From: Bacteroidota bacterium | GTDB taxonomy: Bacteria; Bacteroidota; Bacteroidia; CAIKAF01 | Length of the DNA stretch: 34,302 nt | Direction of reading: 5' to 3' | Assembly (NCBI GenBank): GCA_027621385.1 | Contig: JAQCBQ010000003.1 | Coordinates: forward strand, 1-34,302 | In this document: one piece after another, positions 13,211 through 29,740 of the stretch | Layout: each line of letters begins with the position of its first letter | Position numbering within the stretch: position 1 is the stretch's first letter | Notes under the pieces: generated by a model | Told to the model about the DNA's origin: nothing | The model's database searches: none | What the model saw: only the letters and a program-made list of their open reading frames with translations | Translations under genes and position numbers: made by a program

Positions 13211-14063
13211 TGCCAATTCTTCCTTCACCTCCTTTTTACATCAAGCATTTAACGAGGATGGTTCTGATTTGGGCGATGTAACCTCATTGGGCATTTTCGG
13301 TAAGCATCAACAGGCAAAGGCCCTGTGGTTGGCCAAAGAAGATGGAGTGTTTTCTGGGGCTCAGTACATTGCACCGATTTTTCAATTTGTTGACCCCAAT
13401 GCGCAATGCAATCTGTTGATTCATGATGGCCAACCTTTTCATTCAGGAGATGTATTGTTGGAAGTTCATGGGCTGGCTCATGCCTTGCTCTCCAGCGAAC
13501 GCATTGCCTTGAACCTGGTGCAGCGCATGTGCGGCATTGCCACCAAAACCCATACCCTCTGCCAACGCATAGCTCATACCCATTGCCGCTTGTTGGATAC
13601 GCGCAAAACAACTCCGCTGCTGCGCAGTTTTGAAAAAGAAGCGGTAAGGCATGGGGGAGGTCAAAATCACCGCATCGGACTTTTCGATATGTGCATGATT
13701 AAAGACAACCATCGGGATTTTGCCGGTGGCATTACCCCCGCATTTCAACGCCTAACACAGTACTTGAAATCCCAACATTTGGATTTGCCGATTGAAATCG
13801 AAACCCGCAACCTCGACGACGTAGCTGAAGTTCTTGCTTTACATGCACCCGTTAAACGCATCATGTTTGATAATTTCAGTCCCGAGCAGGTCCGCCTGGC
13901 CGTAAATTTGGTGCAGGGCTCCATCGAAACCGAAGCCAGCGGAGGCATCAATGAGTCCAATTTGGTCAGCTATGCTGAAACAGGAGTCGATTTCATTTCT
14001 ATGGGAGCCTTAACCCATTCGGTTCGAAGCATCGATATTAGTATGAAAGCGTTTCTGCCATGA
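13203..14063 (+). CDS. nadC: Nicotinate-nucleotide pyrophosphorylase (carboxylating), QPRTase
   Basis: GDVTS, ERIALN, DTRKTTP, NHRIGL, IKDNH, IMFDNF and EASGGI motifs; start refined to the ATG at 13203. Confidence 0.97.
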   Translation: MIDANSSFTSFLHQAFNEDGSDLGDVTSLGIFGKHQQAKALWLAKEDGVFSGAQYIAPIFQFVDPNAQCNLLIHDGQPFHSGDVLLEVHGLAHALLSSERIALNLVQRMCGIATKTHTLCQRIAHTHCRLLDTRKTTPLLRSFEKEAVRHGGGQNHRIGLFDMCMIKDNHRDFAGGITPAFQRLTQYLKSQHLDLPIEIETRNLDDVAEVLALHAPVKRIMFDNFSPEQVRLAVNLVQGSIETEASGGINESNLVSYAETGVDFISMGALTHSVRSIDISMKAFLP

Positions 14064-14956
14064 AGGGCCGTTGGATTGTGTTCTTGCTTGGCAAACCCGA
14101 ACTTCAAGGTTGGCTGAAGCAAGTACAATCGTTTTCCCCGCCTGGATTCGGCGGAGTTTCCCTGTGGCGCATCGCCAATTACTTTTTAAACGGAGATCAA
14201 CGCAACAGCTTGTCGCTGCGCGCTTCATCGGTGGCATTCCAGCTGATGCTCGCCTTTTTTCCCTTTTTGATTTTTTTGGTGAGCCTGATTCCATTTTTTC
14301 CGGGAGGACAGCTTGGATATGAGTGGTTTCGGCTGGGCGAGGAGCTGCTTCCGCCACCTCTTTTTGAAGTGGTTGGTCCCATCATTGCCGATGTACTTCT
14401 GAAAAAAAGGGAGGGCTTTGTATGGATTACTTTGTTTGTTGGATTATGGCTCTCTTCAGCCGGAATAAAGGGTTTGATTCAGGCCTTCAATGCCTCAGCT
14501 TTAATTTTAGAAGAACGAAAACCCGGTCAAGTTCGAATTATTTCGCTGTTGGTTATGCTGTTGGGCAGCTTGGCCTTAGGCTTGGCCATCACCATTTTTC
14601 AGGCCATAGACTTTTTATCTGGAACGTTCGCCTGGCTTTCAAGTCACTTGGGCTGGTTGTTTAGCCTCGGCATGACCTGGGTGTTTGTAGCGGCCTTATT
14701 TCGCATTGCGCCGGCAAAATCCTTGGGACTTCGCTTTTTCTCAGCCGGAAGTTGGATTGCTTCCCTGTTTTTACTCTTATTTTCCTGGGCTTTTGGGCTC
14801 TATGTCGAGCGGTTTTTCCAATACAATAAGGTGTTTGGCGTGGTGGGCGCCGTTCCAATGGCCATGATTTTTTTATACCTGGCCGCGTTGGCCTTGCTCA
14901 TTGGATTTGATGTGGATGCCGGAATTGCAAGGGGGAAGGCGGCTTCAAAAGGTTGA
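14060..14956 (+). CDS. YihY/virulence factor BrkB family inner-membrane protein
   Basis: RASSVAFQLMLAFFPFLIF and YNKVFGVVGAV motifs; about 6 TM segments. Confidence 0.88.
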   Translation: MKGRWIVFLLGKPELQGWLKQVQSFSPPGFGGVSLWRIANYFLNGDQRNSLSLRASSVAFQLMLAFFPFLIFLVSLIPFFPGGQLGYEWFRLGEELLPPPLFEVVGPIIADVLLKKREGFVWITLFVGLWLSSAGIKGLIQAFNASALILEERKPGQVRIISLLVMLLGSLALGLAITIFQAIDFLSGTFAWLSSHLGWLFSLGMTWVFVAALFRIAPAKSLGLRFFSAGSWIASLFLLLFSWAFGLYVERFFQYNKVFGVVGAVPMAMIFLYLAALALLIGFDVDAGIARGKAASKG

Positions 14957-14968
14957 TTTTAGGTTTGA

Positions 14969-15112
14969 TTTGGGCGGCAGACGGGCTTTCAGGGCTAGTC
15001 CGCTTCAAAAGCTGATTGGTACAGCGGCTTTGCGGGGGCTTCCAAGGTCGCCTCCGCAGCGCGCGTACCATTCAGCTTTTGTGCGCGTACTAGCTCCTTC
15101 AATCCCTGCCGC
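14969..15112 (-). ncRNA. Structured dispersed element, copy A (144 nt; putative ncRNA or REP-like, Flavo-1-like termini)
   Basis: On the + strand it reads TTTGGGCGG..CGGGCTTTC..stem..GC-TTCCAAGGTC-GC..stem..TCAATCCCTGCCGC. It pairs along its whole length and is homologous to copies B and C. The strand is inferred and uncertain. Confidence 0.7.
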
Positions 15113-15182
15113 GGGGCGGCGATTAAAATTAAATTTCTAGGAAAATTGAAAACGGCTTTAAGCCCGGTTCTGCTTTTGAAAT

Positions 15183-16187
15183 CTAAGACATTTTTCCAAC
15201 CAAAACACACAAATCTGCCAAGCGGTTTGAATAGCCGGCTTCATTGTCATACCAGCCAAATACCTTTACTAGGTTGTCTTTAACAAAGGTCAGTTCAGCA
15301 TCAAATATGCAGGAATGTGGATTTCCTACAATGTCGGCCGATACAATCGGATCTTCGGTGTATTCTAAAATTCCTTTCAATTCATTTTCAGCCGCTTTTT
15401 TAAACGCCGCATTTAAGGTTGCCGCATCCACCGGATTGCGAACAATAAGCGACATGTCGGTTAGACTGCCCGTGGGCGTTGGTACCCGGACGGAAGTCCC
15501 ATCCAATTTACCACTCAAATGGGGGAAAATTTTTCCGATGGCACGGGCAGCGCCGGTTGATGTTGGAACCAACGATAAGGCGGCAGCCCGGGCCCGACGC
15601 AAATCGCTATGCGGTGCATCCTGCAAGCGCTGGTCGGCCGTGTAGGCATGGATGGTATTCATAAAACCATTTTCAATGCCACATACATCATCTACAATTT
15701 TCACCAAAGGACTCACGCAATTGGTGGTGCAAGAAGCATTGGAAATAATCGTGTCAGAAGCAGTTAAACTTCCTTCGTTGGCTCCCAAAACCACCATTTT
15801 AATGTCTGAAGATTTTGCCGGAGCAGACAACAGCACTTTTTTAGCTCCCGCCTGAATGTGCTTAGATGCACTTTCTGAATCTAAAAATAAGCCGGTGCAC
15901 TCCAATACCACATCAATATTCATTTCTTTCCATGGCAGTTCCGCCGGATTTTTTATGGCCGTAATTCGAATTTCATGACCGTTTACCACAAGATTTCCTT
16001 CTTGGGTGCTTACCGTGCCCAAAAATCTTCCATGAATGGAATCGTATTTCAATAAGTGGGCTAGGGCAGTGGCCCCTGTCAAATCATTGATGGCAACGAC
16101 TTCAACATCTTCTTTGGTTTGTAAGGCCCGAAAGGTGATGCGGCCAATTCGACCAAATCCATTGATAGCAACCCGAATTTTTTTCAT
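15183..16187 (-). CDS. gap: Type I glyceraldehyde-3-phosphate dehydrogenase
   Basis: INGFGRIGR, catalytic ASCTTNC and WYDNE motifs. Confidence 0.99.
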   Translation of the reverse strand: MKKIRVAINGFGRIGRITFRALQTKEDVEVVAINDLTGATALAHLLKYDSIHGRFLGTVSTQEGNLVVNGHEIRITAIKNPAELPWKEMNIDVVLECTGLFLDSESASKHIQAGAKKVLLSAPAKSSDIKMVVLGANEGSLTASDTIISNASCTTNCVSPLVKIVDDVCGIENGFMNTIHAYTADQRLQDAPHSDLRRARAAALSLVPTSTGAARAIGKIFPHLSGKLDGTSVRVPTPTGSLTDMSLIVRNPVDAATLNAAFKKAAENELKGILEYTEDPIVSADIVGNPHSCIFDAELTFVKDNLVKVFGWYDNEAGYSNRLADLCVLVGKMS

Positions 16188-16210
16188 GGTGTATTGAAAT
16201 TAATTTGGCG

Positions 16211-16218
16211 CAAACTTA
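16211..16218 (-). promoter_or_regulatory. -7 promoter element TAAGTTTG for gap
   Basis: Exact TAnnTTTG on the minus strand, 23 nt upstream of the ATG. Confidence 0.65.
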
Positions 16219-16340
16219 ATATTTAAGAGCCTAAACTCCCCATGTTTTTTAGAATATTAACCCCTTTTTTCTGCTTTCAGGCTTAACATTTGCTTTTACC
16301 CTTTGCAATTGCGAAATTTGCAGAACATACGTTATCGAAC

Positions 16341-18599
16341 ATGAAGCACTTTTTAATAAGCACCCTGGGATTGTTGGTCGGAGTTATGGCCACAGGAAAC
16401 ATGAACCTGAATGCTCAGCATCAACACCACACCTGCGGTAGTCATTTAAGCGATTACGCTAAACACCACCCTGATTTTTGGGAAGGCTATGTGAAATTCA
16501 TTGAGGAATTTAAAGAGTTTAAATCGTTGGATTTAAATCAATTTGAAACCGCTGAAAATGGAAAACGCATCATTCCTGTGGTTGTGCATGTGATTCATGA
16601 AGGAGGTTCCGAGAATATTTCTACGGCTCAAATTTTGAGCCAGCTGGCTTCTGTAAATTTGGATTTCACCTATACCAATGCCGATAAGGTGGTTATCCCA
16701 CCTTATTTTGATAGCATCGCGGCCGATGCCAACATTGAATTTCGTTTGGCAACCAAAGCCCCCAATGGAGCGTGTACCGATGGAATCAATCGGGTGTATT
16801 CTTACAAAACAAATACCGCCCGCGATTACACCGGCTTTAAAGCGCTTAGCTATTGGGATCGCGCCAAATACTTAAATATTTGGGTTGTTAAAACCATCGA
16901 TAACGATGGCAATCCCTTCGGAAATATTTTAGGATACGCTCAATTTCCTTATTCATTTGGAGGTCAAAACCCGGTTACTACCACCGACGGTATCGCTATG
17001 ATTCACAACCGTACCGGTAAAACCGGCACGGCTGCAGGTACAGCCGGTAGAACCATGACGCATGAAGTTGGGCACTGGTTGGGACTAATCCACATTTGGG
17101 GCGATGACGATTGCGGCAACGACCAAGTGGATGATACTCCATTTTCCCGTCAGCCTAATTTCGGTTGCTTCAATTTCCCAAAAGAGGCTACCTGCCTGGA
17201 ATTAACATCAAATAGCACCGCCGCTGATACCATCGCGCGTTTCCAAATTGGTGAGATGTTCAACAATTACATGGATTACACCGACGATGATTGCATGAAC
17301 ATGTTCTCGAAAGGTCAAAAACAGGTAATGGATTTTGTGTTCAATACCATTTCATTCCGCACCAATTTGATTACTGCTCAAAACGCCTTGGTTACCGGAA
17401 CCGATGATGCGTCTCAGGCCAGTCCTTGCGCCCCAGCTCCCATCGCTGATTTTTGGTCAAGGCAAGGCACAAACAATTTTGAATCGCTGAAAATGATTTG
17501 TGCAGGCTCTTCAGTAAACATGAAGAATGGAACCCACAACGGCAGCACTGCCGGAAATTCCTACACCTGGGATTTACCCGGAGCGGTCGGAACTACCTCT
17601 TCCGATCCTGAGCCCTTGGTTCAATACGATGTTCCCGGTCGGTATGATGTAAAATTAACCGCCACCAATGCCAGCGGAACTGGGTCCAAAACCCGGGAAG
17701 GTTATGTTATGGTTTCGTCTCAACAAGCCATGGACAACAATTACCGTTATTACGATGCCATGGAAGCCGGTCCCGGTTACAGTTTCTTTGCCGATGACAA
17801 ATGGGTGATGATCAATGAGGGTGCCAATCCAACGAAAGGCTGGGAAAAGGTGAACTTTGGGGGTTATAAAAGCTACGGCGCTGCGCGTTGCAATGCCACC
17901 GGCACGCTTCGGTATGAGCGGTTCTTTATGGTTTCTCCATCCTACGATTTAACTGCCGTTGACAATCCCTTGTTGGAAGTGAAGTACGCTTATTCTCAAA
18001 GTACAAATCAACCTTTTATTGAGCAAAACGACGAGCTTCGGGTCTATGTGTCTACCAATTGTGGAGAATCTTGGCAGCTTAGAGGCATGAAGGTGCGCAA
18101 TCAAGGAAATTCAATAACCTCATTGGCCGGTACCAATTTGATTACTGCCGGTCTGTATGCTCAGAATTTCATTCCCGCATCACCCGATGAATGGTCTTAC
18201 TTCACCGTTGATCTGAACAACTTCACCAGCCGCGATAACGTTCGTATCATGTTCCATTACACCAGCGGTGGGCCTTTCGGAAATCCATTGTACATTGATG
18301 ATTTTACCATTTCTGATGCTACAACTTCCATTGCTGAGCAAGCTGTTGAGCCTGGATTTAAAATGTTCCCCAACCCATCTTCAGGACATGTTCAAATTCA
18401 ATTTGACGAATCGACTGTGGTAGGAGATGAAATTGAGGTGTATGATTTGGCAGGTCGCCGGATTCATTTGGCCCATGTATCTTCATCCTCAGAGGCTGGA
18501 ATTACATTAAACCGTTCCATTTTCGGAGAAAGCGGTATGTACTTGGTAAAGGCCATCGTAAATGGTCAAGCCCAAGTGCGTCGCTTGATGATTCACTAA
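16341..18599 (+). CDS. T9SS-secreted M43 (pappalysin/ulilysin-like) zinc metalloprotease with a PKD domain
   Basis: Signal peptide from MKHFLIST (ATG at 16341); propeptide TCG; IPVVVHVIH; zinc motif HEVGHWLGLIH; Met-turn NYMDY; PKD YTWDLPG..PGRYDVKLTATN; CTD MFPNPSSG..GMYLVK. Confidence 0.92.
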   Translation: MKHFLISTLGLLVGVMATGNMNLNAQHQHHTCGSHLSDYAKHHPDFWEGYVKFIEEFKEFKSLDLNQFETAENGKRIIPVVVHVIHEGGSENISTAQILSQLASVNLDFTYTNADKVVIPPYFDSIAADANIEFRLATKAPNGACTDGINRVYSYKTNTARDYTGFKALSYWDRAKYLNIWVVKTIDNDGNPFGNILGYAQFPYSFGGQNPVTTTDGIAMIHNRTGKTGTAAGTAGRTMTHEVGHWLGLIHIWGDDDCGNDQVDDTPFSRQPNFGCFNFPKEATCLELTSNSTAADTIARFQIGEMFNNYMDYTDDDCMNMFSKGQKQVMDFVFNTISFRTNLITAQNALVTGTDDASQASPCAPAPIADFWSRQGTNNFESLKMICAGSSVNMKNGTHNGSTAGNSYTWDLPGAVGTTSSDPEPLVQYDVPGRYDVKLTATNASGTGSKTREGYVMVSSQQAMDNNYRYYDAMEAGPGYSFFADDKWVMINEGANPTKGWEKVNFGGYKSYGAARCNATGTLRYERFFMVSPSYDLTAVDNPLLEVKYAYSQSTNQPFIEQNDELRVYVSTNCGESWQLRGMKVRNQGNSITSLAGTNLITAGLYAQNFIPASPDEWSYFTVDLNNFTSRDNVRIMFHYTSGGPFGNPLYIDDFTISDATTSIAEQAVEPGFKMFPNPSSGHVQIQFDESTVVGDEIEVYDLAGRRIHLAHVSSSSEAGITLNRSIFGESGMYLVKAIVNGQAQVRRLMIH

Positions 18600-18659
18600 T
18601 CTAATCTACGGCCCAAAAGGCTAAGGTAAATTTACCAGAGTCAATCCTGTTCGCCGCCG

Positions 18660-18806
18660 GCGGGCGGGATTGATTCCGTGTAGCGCGCAAAGATGCCGTC
18701 GGTAGGCGGCGCGCGGCGAGGAGGCGACTTTAGGAGCCACCGCAGCCCGCAGCCGCCCCGAACGGCAGCTGCGTACTACCGGAGAAAGCCCGGTTACCCG
18801 CCCAAA
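18660..18806 (+). ncRNA. Structured dispersed element, copy B (147 nt), inverted relative to copies A and C
   Basis: On the + strand it reads GCGGGCGGGATTGA..GC-GACTTTAGGA-GC..GAAAGCCCG..CCCGCCCAAA, the reverse complement of the A/C motifs. The strand is inferred. Confidence 0.7.
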
Positions 18807-18817
18807 TCTAAATCCAA

Positions 18818-20107
18818 TTAGTGGGAAAAGGCCCAAAACGTCGGTTCAGGCAATTTCCATTGATTTAACAGTGTTTTTCGGAACAGATTCAGCGCTGCAA
18901 ACGAGCTGCGTTCAATGTTCCCAGAACGGTCAGAAGCCATTTTAAATGCACGGGAATAGGTGCCTTCCGGACCTGAAATTCCCACCCAAATCAAACCCAC
19001 GGGCTTTTCGGGCGTACCCCCACCAGGGCCCGCAATTCCTGAAGTACTAATTCCATAAATGGCTCCGGTTAAATTCCGAACTCCTTTTGCCATAGCCTCA
19101 ACCACCTGGCTGCTTACGGCACCATGCTGATTGATGTCTTCAGGATTAACTCCCAACATTCTGATTTTAACAGAGTTGTCATAAGCAACGACGCCTCCCA
19201 TAAATGCCGCTGAGGCTCCAGACACCGCTGTCAACAAGCTGGCTATGTTGCCCCCCGTACAGCTTTCTGCCGTGGCCAGCGTAGCCCCGCTTTCGATTAA
19301 ATGCTTCAATACCTGTTCCGGCAGTTCCTGATGGTTCAATCCAATGCACTCGTAACCAAGAAGCTGCTGAAGTTTCTCTGCCTCCAATTGGAATTCTTCT
19401 TGTCCTGCCTTGCTGGGTGAGGTCAAGGACAAACGGAGTCGGACTCGACCTGCTTTTGGAAGATAAGCCAGAGAAATATGGTCGGGCAATTGATTTTCCC
19501 ATTCCCGCAAATGAACCATAAGTTGCGATTCCGGAATGCCTTCGGTGTGAAAGGTCATGTGTTGAATGGGGGCCAATTGAAATTTGGATTTTAAGAAATC
19601 CAATCCGTAGGACTCCATTAAATATTCCATTTCGCGAGGAACGCCGGGCAAACTGATTAAAATGCCATTTTCGGTATCGAACAACATGCCTGAGGCTGTA
19701 CCAATTCGGTTTAGCCAGGTGCTGCAAGAACTGGGCAGTTCTGCCTGACCGCGGTTTACCTCATCCAGGCTTCGGCCTCGGGCTTGCATAAATGCCTGTA
19801 AGACCTGCAGCACCTGTTCGTCGGTTCGCCAGCTGTCATTAAAAAATTCCCGCAGTGTATTTTTTGTAATGTCATCTTTTGTTGGACCAAGTCCGCCGGT
19901 TAAAATTAAGATGTGCCCTTCCTGCATCAGTTCTTTCAATGTGCTTTCAATGCTGGATTTGGAATCGGCGATGCTGCGCTGCTCTACTACCTGCAGTCCG
20001 ATTTCGTTCAATCGGGCAGCCAACCACGCGGCATTGGTATTAATAACCTGACCAATCAGCAATTCATCTCCAATGGATACGAGGTAAACAGCAGTGCTTT
20101 TTTTCAT
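18818..20107 (-). CDS. cinA: CinA-family protein (MoCF-like domain plus NMN deamidase PncC domain)
   Basis: SIGDELLIGQVINTNA, TGGLGPTKDDIT, LPGVPREM, TAESCTGG, GAVS and SGIAGPGGGTPEKPVG motifs. Confidence 0.95.
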   Translation of the reverse strand: MKKSTAVYLVSIGDELLIGQVINTNAAWLAARLNEIGLQVVEQRSIADSKSSIESTLKELMQEGHILILTGGLGPTKDDITKNTLREFFNDSWRTDEQVLQVLQAFMQARGRSLDEVNRGQAELPSSCSTWLNRIGTASGMLFDTENGILISLPGVPREMEYLMESYGLDFLKSKFQLAPIQHMTFHTEGIPESQLMVHLREWENQLPDHISLAYLPKAGRVRLRLSLTSPSKAGQEEFQLEAEKLQQLLGYECIGLNHQELPEQVLKHLIESGATLATAESCTGGNIASLLTAVSGASAAFMGGVVAYDNSVKIRMLGVNPEDINQHGAVSSQVVEAMAKGVRNLTGAIYGISTSGIAGPGGGTPEKPVGLIWVGISGPEGTYSRAFKMASDRSGNIERSSFAALNLFRKTLLNQWKLPEPTFWAFSH

Positions 20108-20188
20108 GGTGTGGTTCTATGTAAATGATTAACAACTTTTAACCGGAAACTCATGATTGAATTCATGCGAAAGGCGAGTCAAAAATTC

Positions 20189-20196
20189 TATTTTTG
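20189..20196 (+). promoter_or_regulatory. -7 promoter element TATTTTTG for the moxR-bat operon
   Basis: Exact TAnnTTTG, 64 nt upstream of the ATG at 20261. Confidence 0.55.
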
Positions 20197-20260
20197 TTTT
20201 GAGTTCGTGAAAATTGGTTCAAATGTACGCTGAAGGTTCAAGAACTTAATCAAAATAGAT

Positions 20261-21244
20261 ATGGATATACAAGCCTTAAATCAGAAAATTGCTGAAGAAT
20301 CTGCCTTTGTTTCTGCAGTGCGCCTAGAAATGGATAAGGTCATTATTGGGCAGCGTTACATGACCGATCGGTTGTTGATCGGATTGCTTAGCAATGGGCA
20401 TATTTTATTGGAAGGAGTGCCGGGATTGGCCAAAACATTGGCCATTAAAACCCTAGCTCAAGTGGTGGATGTGAGTTTCAGCCGAATTCAATTTACTCCA
20501 GATTTGCTGCCGGCCGATGTGGTTGGAACGGTGATTTACAATCCCCGCAGTGAATCGTTTTCGGTGAAAAAGGGTCCTGTGTTCTCTAATTTTGTTTTGG
20601 CCGATGAAATCAACCGGGCGCCTGCAAAGGTTCAAAGCGCCTTGCTCGAAGCCATGCAAGAGCGTCAGGTGACCGTAGGAGATCAGACCTTTTCTCTGCC
20701 CGATCCATTTTTGGTGCTGGCCACACAAAACCCGGTCGAACAGGAAGGCACCTATCCCTTACCCGAAGCTCAATCCGACCGCTTTTTGCTAAAAGTGGTT
20801 TTGGATTACCCCCAGAAGGCCGAAGAGCAAGAGATTATCCGCTTGAATATGCTGCAGGAATTTCCTACAGTGAACGTAGCCGTTCATAAGGATCAAATCA
20901 TTCAAGCCCGCACTGTGGTGCGCGGAATGTACATGGATGAAAAAATTGAACGGTATATTGTGGACTTGGTGCATGCTTCTCGAGACCCTCAGGGAAATGG
21001 AATTCAAGGACTAAAGGAATTGATTTCGTTTGGAGCTTCTCCACGCGCTTCCATTAGTTTGGCTTTGGCATCCAAGGCCTATGCTTTTTTACAGGGCAGA
21101 GGCTATGTCATTCCTGAAGACGTGCGGGCCATTGCAAAAGACGTGTTGAGGCATAGAATTGGATTGACCTACGAGGCAGAAGCCGAGGAAATGACCTCCG
21201 ATGATGTGGTGGATGCCCTTTTGAATAAAGTGTTGGTCCCTTAA
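20261..21244 (+). CDS. moxR: MoxR-family AAA+ ATPase
   Basis: Walker A EGVPGLAKT, RIQFTPDLLPAD, LADEINRAPAKVQSALLEAM, ATQNPVEQEGTYPLPEAQ and GASPRAS motifs. Confidence 0.95.
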   Translation: MDIQALNQKIAEESAFVSAVRLEMDKVIIGQRYMTDRLLIGLLSNGHILLEGVPGLAKTLAIKTLAQVVDVSFSRIQFTPDLLPADVVGTVIYNPRSESFSVKKGPVFSNFVLADEINRAPAKVQSALLEAMQERQVTVGDQTFSLPDPFLVLATQNPVEQEGTYPLPEAQSDRFLLKVVLDYPQKAEEQEIIRLNMLQEFPTVNVAVHKDQIIQARTVVRGMYMDEKIERYIVDLVHASRDPQGNGIQGLKELISFGASPRASISLALASKAYAFLQGRGYVIPEDVRAIAKDVLRHRIGLTYEAEAEEMTSDDVVDALLNKVLVP

Positions 21245-21264
21245 TTTTCCAGACTAGGAGAATT

Positions 21265-22164
21265 ATGGAATTGGTACAATCCGGTCCTGACGATTTAAAA
21301 GACCTTCTTAAAAAGGTACGGCGCATCGAAATTAAGGCGCGTGGCCTTACCGATCAGCTGTTTGCAGGTCAATATCATGCCGCCTTCAAAGGAAGAGGCA
21401 TGTCATTCGCTGAGGTCCGAAATTACCAGTATGGAGATGATGTTCGTTTTATCGATTGGAATGTTACTGCTCGATTTAATGAACCTTTTGTAAAGGTGTT
21501 TGAGGAAGAACGAGAACTCAGTGTGATGCTGATGATGGATGTCAGTGCCTCTTCTGGTTTTGGGTCTCATCACCGTTCATTGCGCGAATTGGCCGCCGAA
21601 ATTGCTGCCATTATTGGCTTTTCTGCCGTTCAAAACAACGATAAAATAGGGGCTGTTTTTTATTCATCTCAGGTGGAACAATTTATTCCCCCACGTAAAG
21701 GCCGCTCTCATTTTTTAAGAATCTTACGCGATTTTCTTGCGTGCACGCCAACGCATGCGGGTACAAGGACCGGAGTTGCCATGGAATATTTGGGCAAAAT
21801 TCTTCGAAAAAAATCTACGGTGTTTTGCATCAGCGATTTTATAGAGCCCAGTTTTTCTGATGCGCTAAAAATTGCGGGCAGAAAGCATGATTTACTGCTG
21901 ATGCGCATCAATGACCCCATGCTGTGTCAACTTCCGGATGTGGGTTTAATTAAACTGAGAGATCCGGAGACCGGCGCCGCCTATTGGCTCGATACGCACC
22001 AAAAAAAGGTTCGTACCCATTGGCAGGCCCATTGGCAAAACCATCAGAAAAAACTAAAATTGGCTGCCCAACGGTATGGCATTGACCTGGCTGAATTTAA
22101 CTCGGCTTCCGATGTGACTCGACCTTTAAACCAGTTGTTTCAATCCAGAGGTGTTCGACGATGA
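21265..22164 (+). CDS. DUF58 / vWA-domain protein
   Basis: FKGRGMSFAEVRNYQYGDDVRFIDWNVTAR, FEEERE, DVSAS and ISDF motifs. Confidence 0.93.
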   Translation: MELVQSGPDDLKDLLKKVRRIEIKARGLTDQLFAGQYHAAFKGRGMSFAEVRNYQYGDDVRFIDWNVTARFNEPFVKVFEEERELSVMLMMDVSASSGFGSHHRSLRELAAEIAAIIGFSAVQNNDKIGAVFYSSQVEQFIPPRKGRSHFLRILRDFLACTPTHAGTRTGVAMEYLGKILRKKSTVFCISDFIEPSFSDALKIAGRKHDLLLMRINDPMLCQLPDVGLIKLRDPETGAAYWLDTHQKKVRTHWQAHWQNHQKKLKLAAQRYGIDLAEFNSASDVTRPLNQLFQSRGVRR

Positions 22165-23078
22165 AAAATAAAATTTCATTCTTCCTGCTTTTTTCACTTG
22201 CCCTAGTATGCCATGGACAAGGAGGATTTGGATTGGCTTGGAAATCTGAAAAGGATACTGTTTTATTGGGCGAGCCCTTTGATTTAACCTTGGAAATTCC
22301 AGCTCAAAAACTTCAACGTGAAATCATTTGGCCCAGTTTTACAGATAGCCTAGGTAGGTTTGAAATTCTTCAGGTAAATTGGTTGGACAGTGGCGAATAC
22401 AGAGCTGGTTTTAAATTAAATATAGTTGGTTACGATTCAGGCAGCGTTTCTATACCGGCCATTGAACTGGGTTTTTTAGACCAGGGCGATACGATTTGGC
22501 TTGAAATCCCCTCCAAATCCATCGAGATTCTATCACCACTGGTCAATTTAGAAGCTGATTTTCAAGACATTTTGGCAAATCCGGACCCGGGCTACCATTG
22601 GCATGAATTTATTCCCATTTTCAGTATTATTCTGCTTGTTTTGGTGTTGGGTATAGCTCTTTTTTGGTACCTGCGTAGAAAAAGGCGAAAAATACCTTCG
22701 GCGCCTGTACTGCCTGCCATCAATCCTTTCGATGCGGCTATACACGCATTGGATTCTCTATCCCATCAGGCGGGAAATCTATCAGATGAGGAAATAAAGG
22801 CATTTTATACCGATGCGGTAGATGTACTTCGTACCTTGGTGGATGAAGTGTACTGCCTGGATGTATCTGAAATGAGCAGCTCAGAATGGCTGTCAGTTTG
22901 GAAACGGAGACCGGAGAACGAACTTACCGGTAAGGAATTGGCTTTCGTTTTGTATGTGGCCGATTTGGTCAAATTCGCAAAACAACAACCGGGGCCCGCA
23001 GAACGTTCTCAATTGATTGAGGCCGCAAAAGTTTTTATTGAGGCCTGTCGGAAACACCAACAACCCAACTTGAATTGA
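22161..23078 (+). CDS. Bat-operon-associated membrane-anchored hypothetical protein
   Basis: Signal peptide, an Ig-like N-terminal part, one TM followed by RRKRRK, and ADLVKFAK; usual position between DUF58 and batA. Confidence 0.8.
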   Translation: MKNKISFFLLFSLALVCHGQGGFGLAWKSEKDTVLLGEPFDLTLEIPAQKLQREIIWPSFTDSLGRFEILQVNWLDSGEYRAGFKLNIVGYDSGSVSIPAIELGFLDQGDTIWLEIPSKSIEILSPLVNLEADFQDILANPDPGYHWHEFIPIFSIILLVLVLGIALFWYLRRKRRKIPSAPVLPAINPFDAAIHALDSLSHQAGNLSDEEIKAFYTDAVDVLRTLVDEVYCLDVSEMSSSEWLSVWKRRPENELTGKELAFVLYVADLVKFAKQQPGPAERSQLIEAAKVFIEACRKHQQPNLN

Positions 23079-23082
23079 TTCA

Positions 23083-24102
23083 ATGAATGAGCTGGTAAAC
23101 ATAAAATTTGACTATCCATTGGTTTTCATACTGATTCCAATTGTTGGGGTGTTTTATTGGTACAACTGGAGACGCAGAAAGGCGGGGCTGAGCTCATTTT
23201 GGAATCATCCCTTGTTGCCCGGCTCAAAAAATGTGTACCCCAAAAGCCTTCGATTTCGGTTGCTGTGGTTGCCCGATTTTTTAAGGATTCTGGTCTTTTT
23301 ATTGTTGGTTTTGGCCTTGGCCCGGCCGCGTGGACATATCGGTATGACAGAGGTGAATCGGGAAATCATCGATATTCAATTGGCTATGGATATTTCAATA
23401 TCGATGAAAGCCAAAGACTTTTCACCCGATCGCCTGGGCGTTTCCAAGAAAATCGCCGCTGAATTTATTGAGGGAAGGCCCAACGACAGAATAGGTTTGG
23501 TTATTTTCTCCGGTGAAAGTTTTACCCAATGCCCAGCTACCCTTGACCATGAAGTGCTGCAAATTTTACTTTCAAAAATTGAAACAGGAATGCTGGTCGA
23601 CGGAACGGCAATTGGCGCGGGCCTTGGAACTGCCGTTGCTCGACTAAAGGATTCCGAGTCCATCAGTAAGGTGGTTGTTTTGCTTACCGATGGGGTGAAC
23701 AACAGTGGAAATATCGCTCCCAGTACGGCAGCTGAAATCGCAAAAACCTTTGGAGTACGCGTATATACTATTGGCGTGGGTAAAAAGGGTAGTGCTCTAT
23801 CTCCTGTAAGTATGAATCCCAACGGAAGTCTGGTGTTTGGAATGGCCCCTGTTGAAATTGATGAAACGCTGTTGAAAGACATTGCCAATCAAACAGGTGG
23901 CAAATATTTCCGGGCTGAAAATGAACAATCCCTAAAGGCCATTTTTGAAGAAATTGATTCCCTGGAAAAGACCTTAATCCAAGACAAGGAGTTTTATGTG
24001 CGGCCTGATTTGTTTTGGCCCGTTGTTGCCCTGGCAGCTTTAATTCTTTTATTGGAATGGGTGCTTCGATTGGTTTGGTTTAAAAGTTTGACGGAACAGT
24101 GA
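23083..24102 (+). CDS. batA: Aerotolerance protein BatA (vWA domain)
   Basis: N-terminal TM segments, LALARP, MIDAS DISISM, GTAIG and LLTDGVNN motifs. Confidence 0.92.
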   Translation: MNELVNIKFDYPLVFILIPIVGVFYWYNWRRRKAGLSSFWNHPLLPGSKNVYPKSLRFRLLWLPDFLRILVFLLLVLALARPRGHIGMTEVNREIIDIQLAMDISISMKAKDFSPDRLGVSKKIAAEFIEGRPNDRIGLVIFSGESFTQCPATLDHEVLQILLSKIETGMLVDGTAIGAGLGTAVARLKDSESISKVVVLLTDGVNNSGNIAPSTAAEIAKTFGVRVYTIGVGKKGSALSPVSMNPNGSLVFGMAPVEIDETLLKDIANQTGGKYFRAENEQSLKAIFEEIDSLEKTLIQDKEFYVRPDLFWPVVALAALILLLEWVLRLVWFKSLTEQ

Positions 24103-25112
24103 GTTTTGAATATCCGGCATATCTGACCTGGTTCTGGATTTTACTCCCCCTGGTCGTTCTCTTCGCCTTCGATTTTCGATGGAGGATGAACCGATTTTTG
24201 CGTTTAGGCAATCCAACTACCGTTCATAAAACCCTGGGTTTATTCCCCAGATATATATTGATTGCTAGGTATACGCTTCGCTTGCTGTTGGTTTCAGCAC
24301 TCATTTTAATCCTTGCTCGACCCAAAGGCGGTCTTACCGATAGCCCCAGAAAAAAATCCGGGACTCAATTGGTTTTCTGTTTGGACGCCTCGCGGTCTAT
24401 GTTGGCAGAGGATTTACAACCCAATCGCCTGTCACGGGCCAAACAGGCTATTTCAGCCGTTTTGAAACGCCTTCAAGGAGATCAGGTTTCGCTGGTTGTC
24501 TTCGCCGGTTCTGCCCATATTCAATTGCCCATGACTTCCGATTATGGAGCCGCGATGATGTTCCTGGATGCAGTTTCTACCGATTACCCCTCGGTGCAAG
24601 GGACCTCTATTTCAGCCGCCTTGCGAGAGGCCATTAAAACACTTCCAGAAAAATCCGATTCAGAACCTGCCCTTATTTTAATGTCGGATGGAGAAGATCA
24701 CGAAGGGGATTTACCTCCCGTTCTTTCTGATTTAAAACAGCGTGGAATACGGGTGTTTGCAATGAGCATTGGGGGAAATGTGGCAGCACCAATTCCAAAC
24801 AATGGGGCTTACCTAACCGATGCACAGGGAAAATTGGTGTTTACCCGACCCAATGAAGAAATGCTATCTCGGATTTCCACTGAAACCAATGGTTTGTTTG
24901 TAAGGGGCTCTGATCCATCTACCGCCTTAAATAAAATCATGGCCGAGATTGATCGATTGAAAAAAAGTACAGCCCTGGCCAGCGAAAACTCCATAGGTCG
25001 CGAAGAACTCTTTCTTCCTTTCCTATGGTTCGCTTTTGGCTTATTGTGTTTGGATTTGTTTTTTGTCCACCAATGGGAAAAATGGTTAAGAAAATGGAGC
25101 ATTTTCGGTTAA
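24099..25112 (+). CDS. batB: Aerotolerance protein BatB (vWA domain; GTG start)
   Basis: LILARP, DASRSMLAEDLQPNRL, PMTSDY and MSDGEDH motifs; GTGA overlap with the batA stop. Confidence 0.9.
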   Translation: MSFEYPAYLTWFWILLPLVVLFAFDFRWRMNRFLRLGNPTTVHKTLGLFPRYILIARYTLRLLLVSALILILARPKGGLTDSPRKKSGTQLVFCLDASRSMLAEDLQPNRLSRAKQAISAVLKRLQGDQVSLVVFAGSAHIQLPMTSDYGAAMMFLDAVSTDYPSVQGTSISAALREAIKTLPEKSDSEPALILMSDGEDHEGDLPPVLSDLKQRGIRVFAMSIGGNVAAPIPNNGAYLTDAQGKLVFTRPNEEMLSRISTETNGLFVRGSDPSTALNKIMAEIDRLKKSTALASENSIGREELFLPFLWFAFGLLCLDLFFVHQWEKWLRKWSIFG

Positions 25113-25807
25113 TCTTTGTTGGTTTGCTTGGGCTTGGGTATGGATTTGTAATCCATGCTCAGATTCCTGGGTTGCAGTCGTATAAACCATTGCGCAATGG
25201 CAATAAGGCACTGCAACAAGCTCAATACCAGAAGGCAGATTCGCTCTTCCAAACCTACCTTAAATCCCATGCCGATAATCCCTTTGCACAAATGGGATTG
25301 GGAAATGCCCTGTATCAAAACGGCAATCCTGATTCTGCCCGGTATTGGTTTGATCGGGCCAGTCAAGGATTCGATAATCCAAAGCATATTTCAACCGCCC
25401 AACACAATTTAGGTAATACGTATATGAAAGCCGAAAAGTGGAATGAGGCAGCTCAACATTACAAGGAAGCCCTAAAGCAATGGCCTGAAAATGAAAAAAG
25501 CCGATATAATTTGGCCTATGCGTTGAAAAAAATCCAGCAAGAAAAACAGCAGCAACAACAGCAACAACAACAGCAACAACAGCAGCAAAATCAACAGCAA
25601 AACCAGCAACAGCAGCAAAATCAGCAACAAAATCAGCAGCCTGAAAATAAACCTAAAAATCAACCCAATTCATCCAAACAAAACATCAAAAAGCAAGATG
25701 CTGAACGCATTCTTGATGCCCTAAACCGTCAAGAAAAAGAAGCTCAAAAGAATCGAGATAAGGACTCCCCCTCAGGTTCCATGGTTCACCCTGAAAAAGA
25801 TTGGTAA
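25094..25807 (+). CDS. batC: Aerotolerance protein BatC (TPR domain plus Q-rich linker)
   Basis: TPR motifs GLGNALYQ, HNLGNTYM and RYNLAYA; Q-rich tract; AERILDAL and terminal EKDW; start refined to MEHFRL. Confidence 0.9.
   Translation: MEHFRLIFVGLLGLGYGFVIHAQIPGLQSYKPLRNGNKALQQAQYQKADSLFQTYLKSHADNPFAQMGLGNALYQNGNPDSARYWFDRASQGFDNPKHISTAQHNLGNTYMKAEKWNEAAQHYKEALKQWPENEKSRYNLAYALKKIQQEKQQQQQQQQQQQQQQNQQQNQQQQQNQQQNQQPENKPKNQPNSSKQNIKKQDAERILDALNRQEKEAQKNRDKDSPSGSMVHPEKDW
25547..25639 (+). repeat. CAG/CAA-rich tract encoding poly-Q/N (about 31 codons) within batC
   Basis: 14 consecutive Gln codons followed by N-Q(n) units. Confidence 0.9.
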
Positions 25808-25809
25808 GT

Positions 25810-27540
25810 ATGAAGACCTTTGTTCGAATCGTATTTTTTATTCTTTTTACTCTGAATTCAATCTGGGCTCAACAGATTCAGGTATCGGTGCAACCTCAAA
25901 ATCCGGTTGTCAATCAACCCTTCCAGATCAGCTACGACATTTCTGGTTTGGCTGGACAATATAAATTGCCTTCGTTTGATCCCTTTGTAAAACTTGGAAC
26001 GTCGCAACAACAAAGCATCGTCAATGGAGTTTCTTCATTTAAGATTTCCGTTCGGCTGCTGGCAAGGTCATCGGGGAAATCTGAAATTGCTCCCCTTCAA
26101 TTGTTGGCCAATGGTCGTGTAATTGCCCAGTCCAATCCGGTGCAAATCAACGTACTTGATGAGGCCTCGGCCAAAGCCAAAACCCAATCCAATTCCAACT
26201 CTGCCGCGGTTAAAAAATCCGATAATCAAATTTTTGTAGTCGCCCGACTTGAAAAATCAACGGTTTATGTTGGCGAACCGCTTACCGTAAGCATTGATTT
26301 GTATTCCAAATACAGTTCTGTTCAATTTGAATCGGTAAAGTTCCCTTCTCTTTCTGGGGGCTGGGTTCAAGATATTCCAGAAGCAGAAGATCAACAGTTT
26401 CGACAAACGCAGGTAGAAGGAGAGCCCTTTTTGGTAGCAACCCTGAAAAAGTATGTCCTTGTCCCTCAGGTTCAAGGAAAAATCTCGATCGACCCTTTGT
26501 TGGCAAGCGTGGTGGTGAGTTACCGTGAAGCTTCTTCCGATCCGTTTGATGTTTTCTTTGGTGGTCGTGTGGTAGAAAAAAAGGTGGAGTTAAAAACACC
26601 CAAAGTAACCCTGACCGCCCTTCCCATTCCATTCGACAACCGCCCCGATAATTTCAGCAATGGGGTAGGGGACTTTGAACTTAGCGTTCGTCCGGGACCT
26701 ACAACGCTCAGTGTCAACGATGCCTTTGAATACAGCGTTACCGTTAAGGGAAATGGGAATTTGAATTTATTGGAACTCCCTAATTTGAATGTTCCTGCCG
26801 AATTTGATGCCTTCGCACCCGATGTTCAAGAAAAAATTTCCTTCACCGAATCTGGAGTGACGGGATCTAAGCAAGTAAATTTTATTTACATTCCAAAAAC
26901 ACCCGGAAAGTACACCATTCCACCGTTTACCTGGTCTTGGTTTAATCCTGCTACCAAAAAATTTGAATCGTTTAGTTCAGATACACTTCATCTAACAGTT
27001 AATGGTTCAGCGCAGGACCAAGACCTGTCTCAATCCGGACCCATAAAGTTTCAAAATACAATTCCTCAGGGGCGATCATCTAAACTTCCTGAAAGGTACG
27101 TTTCTTTTTATGCCAGCCTTTCTTTTTTCGTTTGGCTGATTTTTCTGGTTGGCCTGCTGCTTTTATACACCTTTTGGGGCAAAAAATGGCTGGTACGCTT
27201 GCGCAATAAACGTTCTCTTTCTTTAACCACTTCAACTCATGTCCTGGACGAATTAAACCGATGGAAATCCAATCCGTCCAAAGAGCAGACCTCGGTTTTA
27301 ATTAATACCATGCAGGCCTATATGCGCGACCAATGGAAGCTTCCCATTTCCCAGCAAACGCCCAACGATGTATTGGCTTTTTTTAAACCTTTAGGACTAG
27401 AACAGGAAATCAAAGATTGGTTAAGCCTGATTCAACAGCTTCATTTTCTGGCCTTTGCATCTGTAGCTCCACAGGAGAATGCAAATCAAATCAATGGTCT
27501 TCTACGCAAAACACTTAAAACACTTGAATCACAAAAATGA
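25810..27540 (+). CDS. batD: Aerotolerance protein BatD
   Basis: Signal peptide; Ig-like modules (VYVGEPL, FSNGVGDF, GNGNL, IPKTPGKYTIPP..WFNP); one TM near the C-terminus; operon position. Confidence 0.88.
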   Translation: MKTFVRIVFFILFTLNSIWAQQIQVSVQPQNPVVNQPFQISYDISGLAGQYKLPSFDPFVKLGTSQQQSIVNGVSSFKISVRLLARSSGKSEIAPLQLLANGRVIAQSNPVQINVLDEASAKAKTQSNSNSAAVKKSDNQIFVVARLEKSTVYVGEPLTVSIDLYSKYSSVQFESVKFPSLSGGWVQDIPEAEDQQFRQTQVEGEPFLVATLKKYVLVPQVQGKISIDPLLASVVVSYREASSDPFDVFFGGRVVEKKVELKTPKVTLTALPIPFDNRPDNFSNGVGDFELSVRPGPTTLSVNDAFEYSVTVKGNGNLNLLELPNLNVPAEFDAFAPDVQEKISFTESGVTGSKQVNFIYIPKTPGKYTIPPFTWSWFNPATKKFESFSSDTLHLTVNGSAQDQDLSQSGPIKFQNTIPQGRSSKLPERYVSFYASLSFFVWLIFLVGLLLLYTFWGKKWLVRLRNKRSLSLTTSTHVLDELNRWKSNPSKEQTSVLINTMQAYMRDQWKLPISQQTPNDVLAFFKPLGLEQEIKDWLSLIQQLHFLAFASVAPQENANQINGLLRKTLKTLESQK

Positions 27541-28301
27541 TGCTCCAACTTCGACTCACGGTGTTGTTTTCCTTGTTGGGCTTTTTTACCCTCCAACACG
27601 CCTCTATTATTGAAGATCAGGATATATTGACAGCCTCCGATCGCCAGTTTAAGGCCGGTTTGCTCGACTCTGCGTATTCAGGTTATTCCCGGCTGCTGGA
27701 ATCCGGCTATAAGAATCCGCATATTTTCAATATGTTGGCGGCCACTTCACTGAAACAGCAAAACAAACCCCTGGCTGTGAAATGGTTATATGATGGCTTG
27801 CTGTTGTTCCCCGATTCCAAGGTGTTGGAATCCAATCTAAAGTACATTGAACTTTCGGAGGAACTGCCCTCCGGACCGCGCCCTTTTCTTCCCTGGGGAG
27901 TGCATCTGTTTTCTACCCATACCTGGGCATGCATTTTTCTGGTTTCCATTGGATTTGTTTTGGTGGGATTAATCATTGGTACTTGGTTCACCTCAACGCC
28001 CCTTCGGCGTTGGATGTCTGGGTTGGTATTGGTTTCCATCGGTCTGGGACTGGGCTCCATTTTTGCCGCTCAATGGCGCTACAACCTGTCTAAAAAACAA
28101 TACGGAATTGTCAAAATCAACCAATGTCCGGTCTTGGTGAAACCTCAGCCCGATGCAGAGGTCTTAATGTATTTGGTCCCCGCTCAAGCCATGGAAATCA
28201 TTGAATGGCAAGACGGCTGGGCAAGGGTTAAAAATCCCGACGATGTGGAAGGTTTTGTGAATCAAGACCAGCTTATTCGCTCAGAAGCCTTAGGATTTTA
28301 A
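27537..28301 (+). CDS. batE: Aerotolerance protein BatE (TPR-like region, 2 TM, SH3-like domain)
   Basis: TPR-like N-terminus, two TM helices and a C-terminal GWARV..EGFV SH3-like motif; operon position. Confidence 0.8.
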   Translation: MMLQLRLTVLFSLLGFFTLQHASIIEDQDILTASDRQFKAGLLDSAYSGYSRLLESGYKNPHIFNMLAATSLKQQNKPLAVKWLYDGLLLFPDSKVLESNLKYIELSEELPSGPRPFLPWGVHLFSTHTWACIFLVSIGFVLVGLIIGTWFTSTPLRRWMSGLVLVSIGLGLGSIFAAQWRYNLSKKQYGIVKINQCPVLVKPQPDAEVLMYLVPAQAMEIIEWQDGWARVKNPDDVEGFVNQDQLIRSEALGF

Positions 28302-28303
28302 GT

Positions 28304-28822
28304 ATGCGCATTCTGTTGCTCAGCGATAGCCATGGTGCCTTACCTAAAAAAATCGAACCATTCCTTAAAGAAGCAGATGAAATCTGGCATGCCGGTGACA
28401 TCGGTCCTTCAGGTTGCCTTGATTTTTTGGAAAGTATGGCTCCGGTGCGGGCAGTGTATGGCAACATCGACGGCCGGGAAATTCGCCTCCGATGCCCGGA
28501 ATATCTAAACTTTAATGTTCAAGGCTTGTCCTTTTTTATGATGCATATTCTGGGGCGTCCCGGTCGATATTCGGCTCAAGCCAAGTCCCTGATTCAAAAA
28601 CAGTCCCCTAAATTCGTCATTTGTGGGCACTCCCATATCGCTCTGGTGGCTCCGGGTCAGTTTCCCGGAACCTTGCATTTAAATCCTGGCGCTATTGGCA
28701 ACCACGGCTGGCATAAATCCATCACTGCGCTCCGCTTTCAAATTGAAAATCAGGCACTTTCGAATCTTGACTTGATTGATTTGGGTCCGCGTGGCACCGA
28801 GCAGCCGATGGTATATTTCTAG
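28304..28822 (+). CDS. YfcE/MJ0936-family metallophosphoesterase
   Basis: LSDSHG, HAGDIG, VYGNID, GHSH and LNPGA motifs. Confidence 0.93.
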   Translation: MRILLLSDSHGALPKKIEPFLKEADEIWHAGDIGPSGCLDFLESMAPVRAVYGNIDGREIRLRCPEYLNFNVQGLSFFMMHILGRPGRYSAQAKSLIQKQSPKFVICGHSHIALVAPGQFPGTLHLNPGAIGNHGWHKSITALRFQIENQALSNLDLIDLGPRGTEQPMVYF

Positions 28823-28827
28823 TATTT

Positions 28828-28973
28828 TTTGGGCGGGTTTCGGGCTTTCAGCGGCAGTACGCGGGGAAGTTGGGGGCGGCAGTGCAGAAAAAGGAGCTCC
28901 TCGCGTCGCTCTTTTTCTGCGCTGCCGCCAGCCCAACTTCCCCTTGCGCGCTGCCTGCTTCAATCCCGCCCGC
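28828..28973 (-). ncRNA. Structured dispersed element, copy C (146 nt)
   Basis: On the + strand it reads TTTGGGCGGG..CGGGCTTTC..~34-bp stem..GC-TCCTCGCGTC-GC..TCAATCCCGCCCGC; homologous to copies A and B. The strand is inferred. Confidence 0.7.
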
Positions 28974-29047
28974 AATGGCCCAATACCTCAACGCTGATGT
29001 TAATAAATTTAAGGCCAATGGCACAATAATCAAGATGCAATTGGATG

Positions 29048-29740
29048 CTATTCGGAAGTTAAATCGGACAAAAATTGCTGCTTTAACTGGGCGGAATGCC
29101 GAAACGATCGTTCTGCCCAAGCAATTTTTAAATCCAATTGTTCTGCCAAACTAAGTCCAAATTGACTTGGCTGTTGTTCCCGCATTTTCCAGGTAAGGTG
29201 GTGCATGCACACGGCCGCAGAAACACTTACATTTAGGCTTTCAGTAAATCCAACCATTGGAATTTTCATGTAGCCGTCAGCCGAGTGAAGCGCCTCTTCA
29301 CTCAAGCCCTGCATCTCAGTTCCAAAAACAAGGGCCAATGGAACACTGCAGTCCATGGTCTCTAAATTTACATCGTTCTTATGTGGACTGGCAGCGTATA
29401 TGGTATATCCTAAGGTCCTCAGTTTGGAATAGCATTGCTGTACCGCATCCTCACCTGAATACCTGTGAATGCTCAACCAACGGCTACTGCCCAGTGAAAT
29501 TTCGTGGCTGGTGCTAAAGGGATTTGTTTTTTCAATAACATGCACATCCTGAACCCCGAAGCAATCGCAGGAACGAAGTACAGCACTGGCATTGTGCGCT
29601 TGAAAGAGATTTTCTAAAACAATGGTCAACCTTCGCGTACGCAAAGCCGCTTTTTCATTGAACAACAACGCCTTATGAGGCGTAATTTGTTCCAACAAAC
29701 ATTCCAGGTAGCTCGACTTCCGATCTCCCGGAACATCCAT
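29048..29740 (-). CDS. trmH: TrmH/SpoU-family RNA 2'-O-methyltransferase (tRNA Gm18-like)
   Basis: VLENL..HNASAVLRSCDCFG, VFGTE.QGLS and IPMVGFTESLNVSVS motifs; TAATG overlap with ndk. Confidence 0.88.
   Translation of the reverse strand: MDVPGDRKSSYLECLLEQITPHKALLFNEKAALRTRRLTIVLENLFQAHNASAVLRSCDCFGVQDVHVIEKTNPFSTSHEISLGSSRWLSIHRYSGEDAVQQCYSKLRTLGYTIYAASPHKNDVNLETMDCSVPLALVFGTEMQGLSEEALHSADGYMKIPMVGFTESLNVSVSAAVCMHHLTWKMREQQPSQFGLSLAEQLDLKIAWAERSFRHSAQLKQQFLSDLTSE

Follow-up and report, generated by a model that had tools for sequence, protein, structure and literature searches.

Repeats of the repetitive extragenic palindromic (REP) type are well studied in Proteobacteria and barely described in Bacteroidota. 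ERIC/IRU (~127 bp) and Correia/NEMIS are intergenic imperfect palindromes of 100–150 bp that occur in both orientations, and their hairpins have a known or presumed effect on neighbouring transcripts. The copies of these families share full-length sequence, and the terminal repeats of Correia elements come with a TA duplication. Integron attC sites keep their structure while their sequence varies; unpaired bases at fixed positions distinguish one strand, and reading takes place on the folded single strand of DNA. They form one-way arrays beside cassettes and an integrase. For Bacteroidota, a survey of Y1 transposases (Quentin et al. 2018, PMC6006769) mentions, in the portion of its text considered here, only ‘atypical secondary structures’ in the vicinity of certain transposase genes. 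Here we describe a family of ~147-nt palindromic repeats, three copies of which (A, B, and C) lie in a 34,302-nt stretch of DNA from a Bacteroidota bacterium (assembly GCA_027621385.1, contig JAQCBQ010000003.1, positions 1–34,302), referred to below as the window. We read the family, with a probability of roughly one half, as an old, high-copy, non-coding DNA repeat of the REP/REPIN kind with a terminator-like hairpin role at gene ends; it is probably not an RNA gene. Literature searches found no description of the 147-nt element, and the family is undescribed so far as these searches reach.

The element is a rod of ~147 nt, composed of a conserved foot, a conserved head, and a middle stem that varies yet remains paired (85 aligned members, 43 supported pairs). 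The foot is closed by a 5-bp stem, GCGGN/NCCGC, which occurs in three covarying variants, with a bulge of 3–6 nt on the 5′ arm. Next, GGGCUU pairs with AAUCCC around a C·U mismatch, followed by a UC/UC internal loop. Further inward lie a short covarying stem with fixed bulges and then [G/C]TAG-TCCGC opposite TTGCGGGC-TA[C/G]. The foot arms are asymmetric, with GGGCGG, the bulge, and CGGGCTTTC facing TTCAATCCC and YRCCGC, and the 5′-foot columns were invariant or nearly so in 26 copies. A TAG is nearly fixed at columns 29–31, 27 nt inside the element, and is preceded by G in 43 and by C in 27 of the 85 copies. The middle stem of ~25 bp is free in sequence among copies, with its complementarity kept. 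The head has a stem with a fixed unpaired U, followed by GC-UC-C-NNNN-G-UC-GC (GCTYC-N4-GTCGC). Diverged members in other genera keep the foot and head, and their middle is A+T-rich.

Pairing was observed in 92.5% of the cells in 80 aligned members, compared with 67.4% in 500 shuffles, none of which reached 92.5%, and with 37–50% when the partners were slid by 1–3 columns. Compensatory changes, affecting both sides of a pair, were present in 38 of the 43 pairs in this alignment, which was fitted to the model and therefore leans towards structure, and in 26 of 38 predicted pairs in a MAFFT alignment. An earlier, preliminary description of the window had reported stems that differ in sequence yet remain complementary, and the covariation bears this out. 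A look-alike of the stem just upstream of copy A (16/18 positions) prompted a test of whether the variable stems were copied from local flanks; own flanks scored 6.69 and those of other copies 6.69 (179 copies), which corresponds to chance. A copy-specific closing stem between the flanks was likewise rejected (own partners, −6.08 kcal/mol; mismatched partners, −6.38 kcal/mol).

The three window copies each fold as a single rod and each lie between the stop codons of two convergent open reading frames (ORFs; Table 1). A covariance model (CM) built from 26 copies located them within 2 nt of where the preliminary description had placed three similar rods. The motifs named there were also recovered: TTTGGGCGG, CGGGCTTTC, AGT(A/C)CGC, a 10-nt loop ending in GTC between GC and GC, TGCGCG, and TCAATCCC. 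With RNA parameters, the energies lay between −83 and −99 kcal/mol and the z scores between −4.7 and −8.7; no shuffle out of 200 reached the stability of A, B, or C. With DNA parameters, the energies were −44 to −58 kcal/mol. The reverse strands folded as strongly as the given strands.

Table 1. Repeat copies in the window, the parts of copy A, and a further feature at the window end (fold energies with RNA parameters).
Feature	Position	Strand	Motifs and scores	Neighbours
Copy A of the ~147-nt palindromic repeat	14969–15114	+	CM 137.1 bits; nhmmer 105.4 bits, model positions 1–147	stop of ORF 14060–14956 (+); stop of ORF 15183–16187 (−)
Copy A, rod fold	14969–15114	+	−83 kcal/mol, z −7.6	
Copy A, 5′ foot	14969–15003	+	TTTGGGCGG, 3–6 nt bulge, CGGGCTTTC, short covarying stem, TAGTCCGC	
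Copy A, head	15032–15057	+	stem GCGGGGGC/GCCTCCGC closing loop TTCCAAGGTC (UC, C-NNNN-G, UC)	
Copy A, 3′ foot	15080–15114	+	TGCGCG, CTAG, covarying stem, TTCAATCCC, TGCCGC	
Copy B	18658–18806	−	CM 135.4 bits; −84.9 kcal/mol, z −4.7	stop of ORF 16290–18599 (+); stop of ORF 18818–20107 (−)
Copy C	28828–28975	+	CM 120.1 bits; −98.7 kcal/mol, z −8.7	stop of ORF 28304–28822 (+); stop of ORF 29048–29740 (−)
5′ part of a tRNA gene, cut by the window end	34255–34302	+	30 bits (gathering cut-off 29)	

The freshwater Bacteroidota genome to which the window belongs (2.36 Mb, 246 contigs, 46.8% G+C) contained 233 nhmmer matches, amounting to 1.3% of its DNA, as expected from the earlier proposal that the three copies belong to one family with many further members. 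These comprised 191 full-length and 42 partial matches; 19 of the latter are truncated at a contig end, and the others are deletions or a few reverse-strand echoes of full copies. A pattern for the 5′ motifs had 48 occurrences in the genome and its reversed form had none, and a two-ended pattern occurred 133 times, with an end-to-end distance of 140–145 nt in 132 of them. Since an element is present no more than 200 nt away from 42 of the 492 contig ends, the family contributes to the fragmentation of the assembly. Several irregular forms were also seen. A variant on contig C74 (~11347–11456) is a palindrome of two inverted 5′ arms, and short forms of 63 and 93 nt on C78 (3173–3210) and C146 (1164–1256) keep the foot and have lost the middle and head. 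Two contigs have other local repeats. On contig C75, a tandem series on CTCAACCACCGGCAC.GGT begins at ~2788 after a foot-like start. On C110 (~19963–20083), a tandem GACCCAAGGCATGCCTTATGT-like series is accompanied by a small hairpin, and the same site in another species carries a 147-nt element.

Within the genus, the CM matched all seven genomes, with at least 150 matches in each of four and 64–73 weaker matches, belonging to a diverged sub-family, in the remaining three. Other genera of the same taxonomic family had none or 1–3 weak matches, and 2 of 150 genomes matched in a wider sample of the phylum (20 candidates per genome). The carriers found in an exact-pattern scan of one genome per species were uncultured Flavobacteriales and Bacteroidetes metagenome-assembled genomes (MAGs), and copies with the same ends also occurred in several unrelated Bacteroidota MAGs. 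Five distant Bacteroidota genomes gave 53, 33, 24, 22, and 4 CM matches, nearly all of 145–155 nt. The family is thus patchy across the phylum, multicopy wherever present, and so far seen only in Bacteroidota. A blastn search with copy A against plasmids and phages yielded no match. A loose 17-base pattern picked out 80 viral contigs, of which only three matched the CM; the rest are chance matches. These three contigs filed as viral (loci L208/L215 and L228; 44.9, 44.9, and 30.5 bits) carry diverged members, and the member at L228 (30.5 bits) keeps the foot around an unrelated, poorly paired interior.

To what extent resident copies are constrained was measured in an alignment of ~200 kb from this genome with a close relative (~96% identical), which included 28 orthologous elements; of the 31 query loci, 30 came from one MAG and the other from a genome of the genus. 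Divergence was 1.98%, 1.17%, and 8.62% at codon positions 1, 2, and 3, respectively, and 4.32% in other intergenic DNA. In the elements, it was 0.61% (18/2942) at paired sites and 2.65% (30/1132) at unpaired sites, and the 28 orthologous pairs contained no gaps. Changes affected 0/648 paired sites in the 5′ foot, 3/639 in the 3′ foot, and 2/434 in the head, and 0/140 sites in the tetraloop. In the middle stem, 13/1182 paired sites and 15/280 unpaired sites had changed (Fisher p = 4e-5). Because this stem is unique to each copy, the contrast between its paired and unpaired sites cannot stem from copying between elements. Hairpin-templated repair predicts mostly double changes and was rejected, as a comparison of 17 orthologous pairs gave 1 double and 11 single-sided changes. 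Paired sites evolving more slowly than second codon positions indicate purifying selection on each copy in place; each resident copy is under purifying selection on its pairing and motifs.

The family is not multiplying fast at present. Among 170 copies, the median identity to the nearest neighbour was 85% and the highest 96.5%, and no pair was 98% identical or more. In the most similar pairs, the likeness starts at GGGCGG and ends 2–17 nt past CCGC. No flanking direct repeat that would represent a target duplication was detected in the nine most similar pairs or in the flank profiles. In comparison with a genome 95–98% identical, 17 of 18 syntenic sites were filled in both genomes in the same orientation; at the 18th, an element lies no more than ~20 nt from the estimated junction (C3:4463–4608), and this site is probably filled too. 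In comparison with two species ~75% identical, 10 of 17 syntenic sites had an element nearby. At three of these ten shared sites, the inner sequences were 81–95% identical, far above random pairs, with flanks ~75–87% identical; at the other seven, including the site of copy A, they were no more alike than random pairs. The coexistence of alike and unlike shared sites indicates that some copies have resided for long and others have been replaced. When metagenomes were scanned with the protein encoded upstream of copy A, one locus was returned, and it was filled.

The elements are extragenic, high-copy, and hairpin-forming, and their placement relative to genes is uneven. Using greedy ORF calls, we placed 159 copies between called genes and found an element in 56 of 272 convergent spacers (20.6%), 21 of 277 divergent spacers (7.6%), and 72 of 1302 tandem spacers (5.5%). 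The median distance from a gene's stop to the 5′ end of the element is 19 nt. A T-rich tract precedes the hairpin; on one strand it is followed by RGGCS..CCTCA, on the other by an A-run. Selection probably acts on the copies as stable hairpins or cruciforms located where transcription units end, most of all in convergent spacers. At these sites, the element would stand in for an ordinary terminator hairpin, and in either orientation would stop or insulate transcription or buffer supercoils. In line with such a stand-in, the best 60-nt hairpin in convergent spacers lacking an element had a median of −15.6 kcal/mol (58% at −14 or better), compared with −8.2 kcal/mol (29% at −14 or better; p = 3e-5) in the remainder of convergent spacers with an element, and a scan of the spacers of A and B for a hairpin followed by a T-run found none. 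A role at the level of DNA, as a cruciform or a supercoil buffer between convergent genes, fits the symmetric wobble result given below equally well. The fixed distance from head to foot suggests a putative protein that reads both ends of the rod. Carried further, the genome would hold ~200 hairpins of DNA (or of RNA from both strands) that are read by a protein and on which streamlined freshwater Bacteroidota rely for closing their transcription units; the reader would act like a ruler, binding both foot and head on either side of the 25-bp spacer of free sequence, and ordinary terminator hairpins between convergent genes would have been replaced. We offer this extension tentatively and regard it as doubtful. 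If true, a protein-read set of hairpins would explain stems that are held more tightly than second codon positions.

Past spread may have occurred as a single-stranded DNA hairpin leaving no target duplication, as for REPs mobilized by a Y1 HUH transposase of the REP-associated tyrosine transposase (RAYT) type. Two RAYT-like ORFs were present in the genome, on contigs C206 and C236. They reached 36.5 and 24.4 bits against Pfam Y1_Tnp (cut-off 23), and 65.5 and 56.1 bits, below the cut-off of 80, against the NCBIfam model for REP-associated tyrosine transposases. The motif of the C206 ORF is YIKNNP, and a short REP lies within this gene; the C236 ORF has the motif YIHQNP and lies on a contig that ends 137 nt upstream of the gene. 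An element is located 157 nt upstream of the C236 orthologue in a close relative and ~450 nt upstream of a homologue in another species. A distant carrier has a RAYT-like ORF of 226 aa whose end lies 145 nt from an element. Overall, 4 of 13 RAYT-like loci had an element within 500 nt (a remnant in the case of C206), which is above the expectation from copy density; a fifth locus, L257, has a 41-nt model match at 31.9 bits, and the count depends on the cut-off. The link between RAYT and element is no more than suggestive. In the close relative G003 (locus L165, 1501–2127), the C236 orthologue matches in two overlapping pieces (residues 1–118 and 106–197), which may reflect a frameshift.

The short REP near the C206 gene (AGAGACGCAC..GTGCGTCTCT) is rare: the genome contains 4 full palindromes and 23 half-sites of it, none of them in the window. 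It clusters on both sides of the C206 gene (locus L155, 1040–1340 and 1880–2020), and one copy is translated inside the gene as ..ETHNRASL... Three of these short REPs directly follow the word TTTGGGCGG or GGGCGG, and one of these three lies inside a broken copy of the 147-nt element.

Several observations weigh against a REP-like family with a terminator-like role. The C206 gene is flanked by this different, rare short REP, a genome that is 99% complete and has at least 169 copies contains no Y1 or RAYT-like gene by Pfam model and protein search, and RAYT-like homologues in other genera had no foot motifs nearby. The first base of the ‘GTAG’ word is not fixed and covaries with its partner. 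Mobility is deduced only from patchy occupancy, seven of the 17 syntenic sites being empty in this genome. No clean empty site was found, as the seven alignments of filled and empty sites, made with the species ~75% identical, are too diverged to define boundaries. The terminator or insulator role is likewise deduced. A T-run after the hairpin was looked for on both strands and not found, and the scan for hairpins with a T-run flagged nothing at A or B, so the element is not an intrinsic terminator; were it to stop transcription, the hairpin would do so unaided or by way of a protein bound to it. The comparison of best hairpins between convergent spacers with and without an element is confounded by spacer length (70 vs 103 nt), the residual spacers being shorter. 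Furthermore, the two strands differ: one copy scored 138.6 bits with the CM on one strand and 30.3 bits on the other, and three fixed positions have frequent G·U on the high-scoring strand only. These two asymmetries imply that some strand-specific reading exists, and RNA may be what is read.

Such strand specificity, together with the very strong covariation, the purifying selection on each copy, and the nearness of the 5′ end to a stop codon, would be expected if the elements were structured RNAs, either cis-acting elements in 3′ untranslated regions (UTRs) or small RNA genes, with a fold and loops read by an RNA-binding protein. Contigs from RNA libraries (runs X15 and X17, from two studies) also point in this direction: they cover gene 15183–16187 and reach positions 15097 and 15083 in the 3′ arm of copy A, and their entry into A by 18–32 nt indicates that the 3′ UTR of this convergent gene extends into the element. 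None of the listed contigs, which reveal neither transcript ends nor strand, spans an element; this has little weight, since contigs break at repeats. We nevertheless consider this explanation unlikely. An RNA helix normally tolerates G·U and not A·C, yet the variable stems contained ~50 G·U and ~48 A·C cells. Folds of individual copies had 45 G·U in the middle stem on the given strand and 40 on the reverse, and in tandem spacers G·U was counted 21 times on the transcribed strand and 30 times on the other. Orientation in tandem spacers was 38 sense to 38 antisense, that is, random with respect to transcription. The even orientation and a G·U frequency no higher than that of A·C argue away from a strand-specific RNA. 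The Bacteroidetes −7 box is TAnnTTTG; the flank upstream of the element is rich in T, but no enrichment of A is seen at the positions that this box requires. No Rfam family matches the elements. At gathering thresholds, Rfam 15 gave no family in the window except the partial tRNA at its far end, a permissive scan of copy A gave only noise, and the divergent copy L138 matched nothing at E up to 1. Flavo-1 (RF01705), which the preliminary description had named as a likeness, reached at most 27.6 bits in the genome, compared with its cut-off of 42 bits, and did so at a site that is not an element (C173:5808–5875); this resemblance is abandoned. That description had left the choice between a multicopy non-coding RNA and a REP/REPIN-like element, of which the latter fits best, whereas orientation and wobble pairing disfavour the former.

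The REP-like reading also has to be set against two accounts without a role at gene ends. A purely selfish miniature inverted-repeat transposable element with no host role, tolerated where harmless, would be intergenic, multicopy, and patchy across the phylum. Further points are consistent with it: the copies break assemblies near contig ends, the foot consists of imperfect terminal inverted repeats, occupancy differs between species, deletion variants exist, and one copy is interrupted by another repeat. Such an origin of the present pattern is nonetheless quite unlikely, because a dead insertion should drift and selection of the kind observed is not expected of it. Resident copies evolve 7 times more slowly than other intergenic DNA and more slowly than second codon positions, and paired sites of the middle stem 5 times more slowly than unpaired sites of the same copies. 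Moreover, target duplications and near-identical copies are missing, the foot arms are only partly complementary, and a longer, gene-carrying version bounded by the same ends was not found in this genome, where no pair of ends encloses a gene. The other account ties the element to replication, with a hairpin on the single-stranded lagging-strand template that serves as a priming or processing signal and an orientation set by fork direction. Counts within ±10 kb placed the given strand on the strand locally richer in C in 125 of 180 cases (t-test, 181 elements, p = 1e-9). Around 191 elements, a mean oriented GC skew of −0.02 to −0.05 persisted to ±6 kb; it is not accounted for by the orientation of genes (coding-strand skew, +0.035; 51% of nearby genes co-oriented). 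The bias fades, however, on contigs longer than 20 kb (29 vs 23), and whole-contig counts gave only 41 of 76. Neighbours on the same contig were opposed in 52 pairs and alike in 27 (hand count), and no one-strand runs appeared on a 1.5-Mb contig of a relative (44 matches) or on the contigs of another relative. We regard a replication signal as very improbable.

The REP/REPIN-like reading makes this family a sharply defined case of such repeats, with constant length, a conserved architecture at two ends, and hundreds of natural variants of the spacer stem. The measurable purifying selection on resident copies renders the much-debated question of host service by such repeats directly testable in this lineage. 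Annotators gain a model for ~1% of these genomes, DNA that is now unlabelled and breaks metagenome assemblies.

Among described systems, Flavo-1 shares with the element its occurrence in Bacteroidota, and its model does not match. The 147-nt elements resemble attC sites in keeping structure over sequence, but they are scattered singly and on both strands. ERIC and Correia have comparable size, location, and symmetry; here, unlike in those families, only the foot and head are shared among copies and no duplication is seen. The survey of Y1 transposases (Quentin et al. 2018, PMC6006769) describes long ‘double foot’ REPs associated with TnpA-Y1 subclass 2.4, which includes Bacteroidetes; these share with our elements the phylum and an inner part bounded by [G/C]TAG and CTA[C/G]. 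According to the same survey, YIHQNP is the signature of the Bacteroidetes subclass 2.6, whose ‘atypical secondary structures’ lack GT[AG]G and fold weakly (PMC6006769). By these descriptions, the C206 ORF, with YIKNNP and a REP inside the gene, would be 2.4-like, and the C236 ORF, with YIHQNP, 2.6-like. The 147-nt elements differ from the subclass 2.6 structures, as far as their description allows a comparison, in folding very strongly.

With REP/BIME and REPINs and their RAYTs in Proteobacteria, the family has in common extragenic, high-copy, imperfect palindromes that fold into hairpins with compensatory changes in the arms, enrichment at 3′ gene ends and in convergent spacers, insertion lacking target duplication, RAYT-like genes in the genome, and populations that persist for long periods instead of bursting. 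The differences lie in the partner and in the architecture. No cognate RAYT is established here, and one copy-rich genome had no RAYT-like gene. The arms are not small hairpins, and the GTAG-like word is internal, with a first base that covaries. In place of these, the family has one ~147-nt rod in which a conserved head and a conserved foot are separated by a freely varying paired spacer, and this head–spacer–foot design, conserved copy by copy in place, is unusual.

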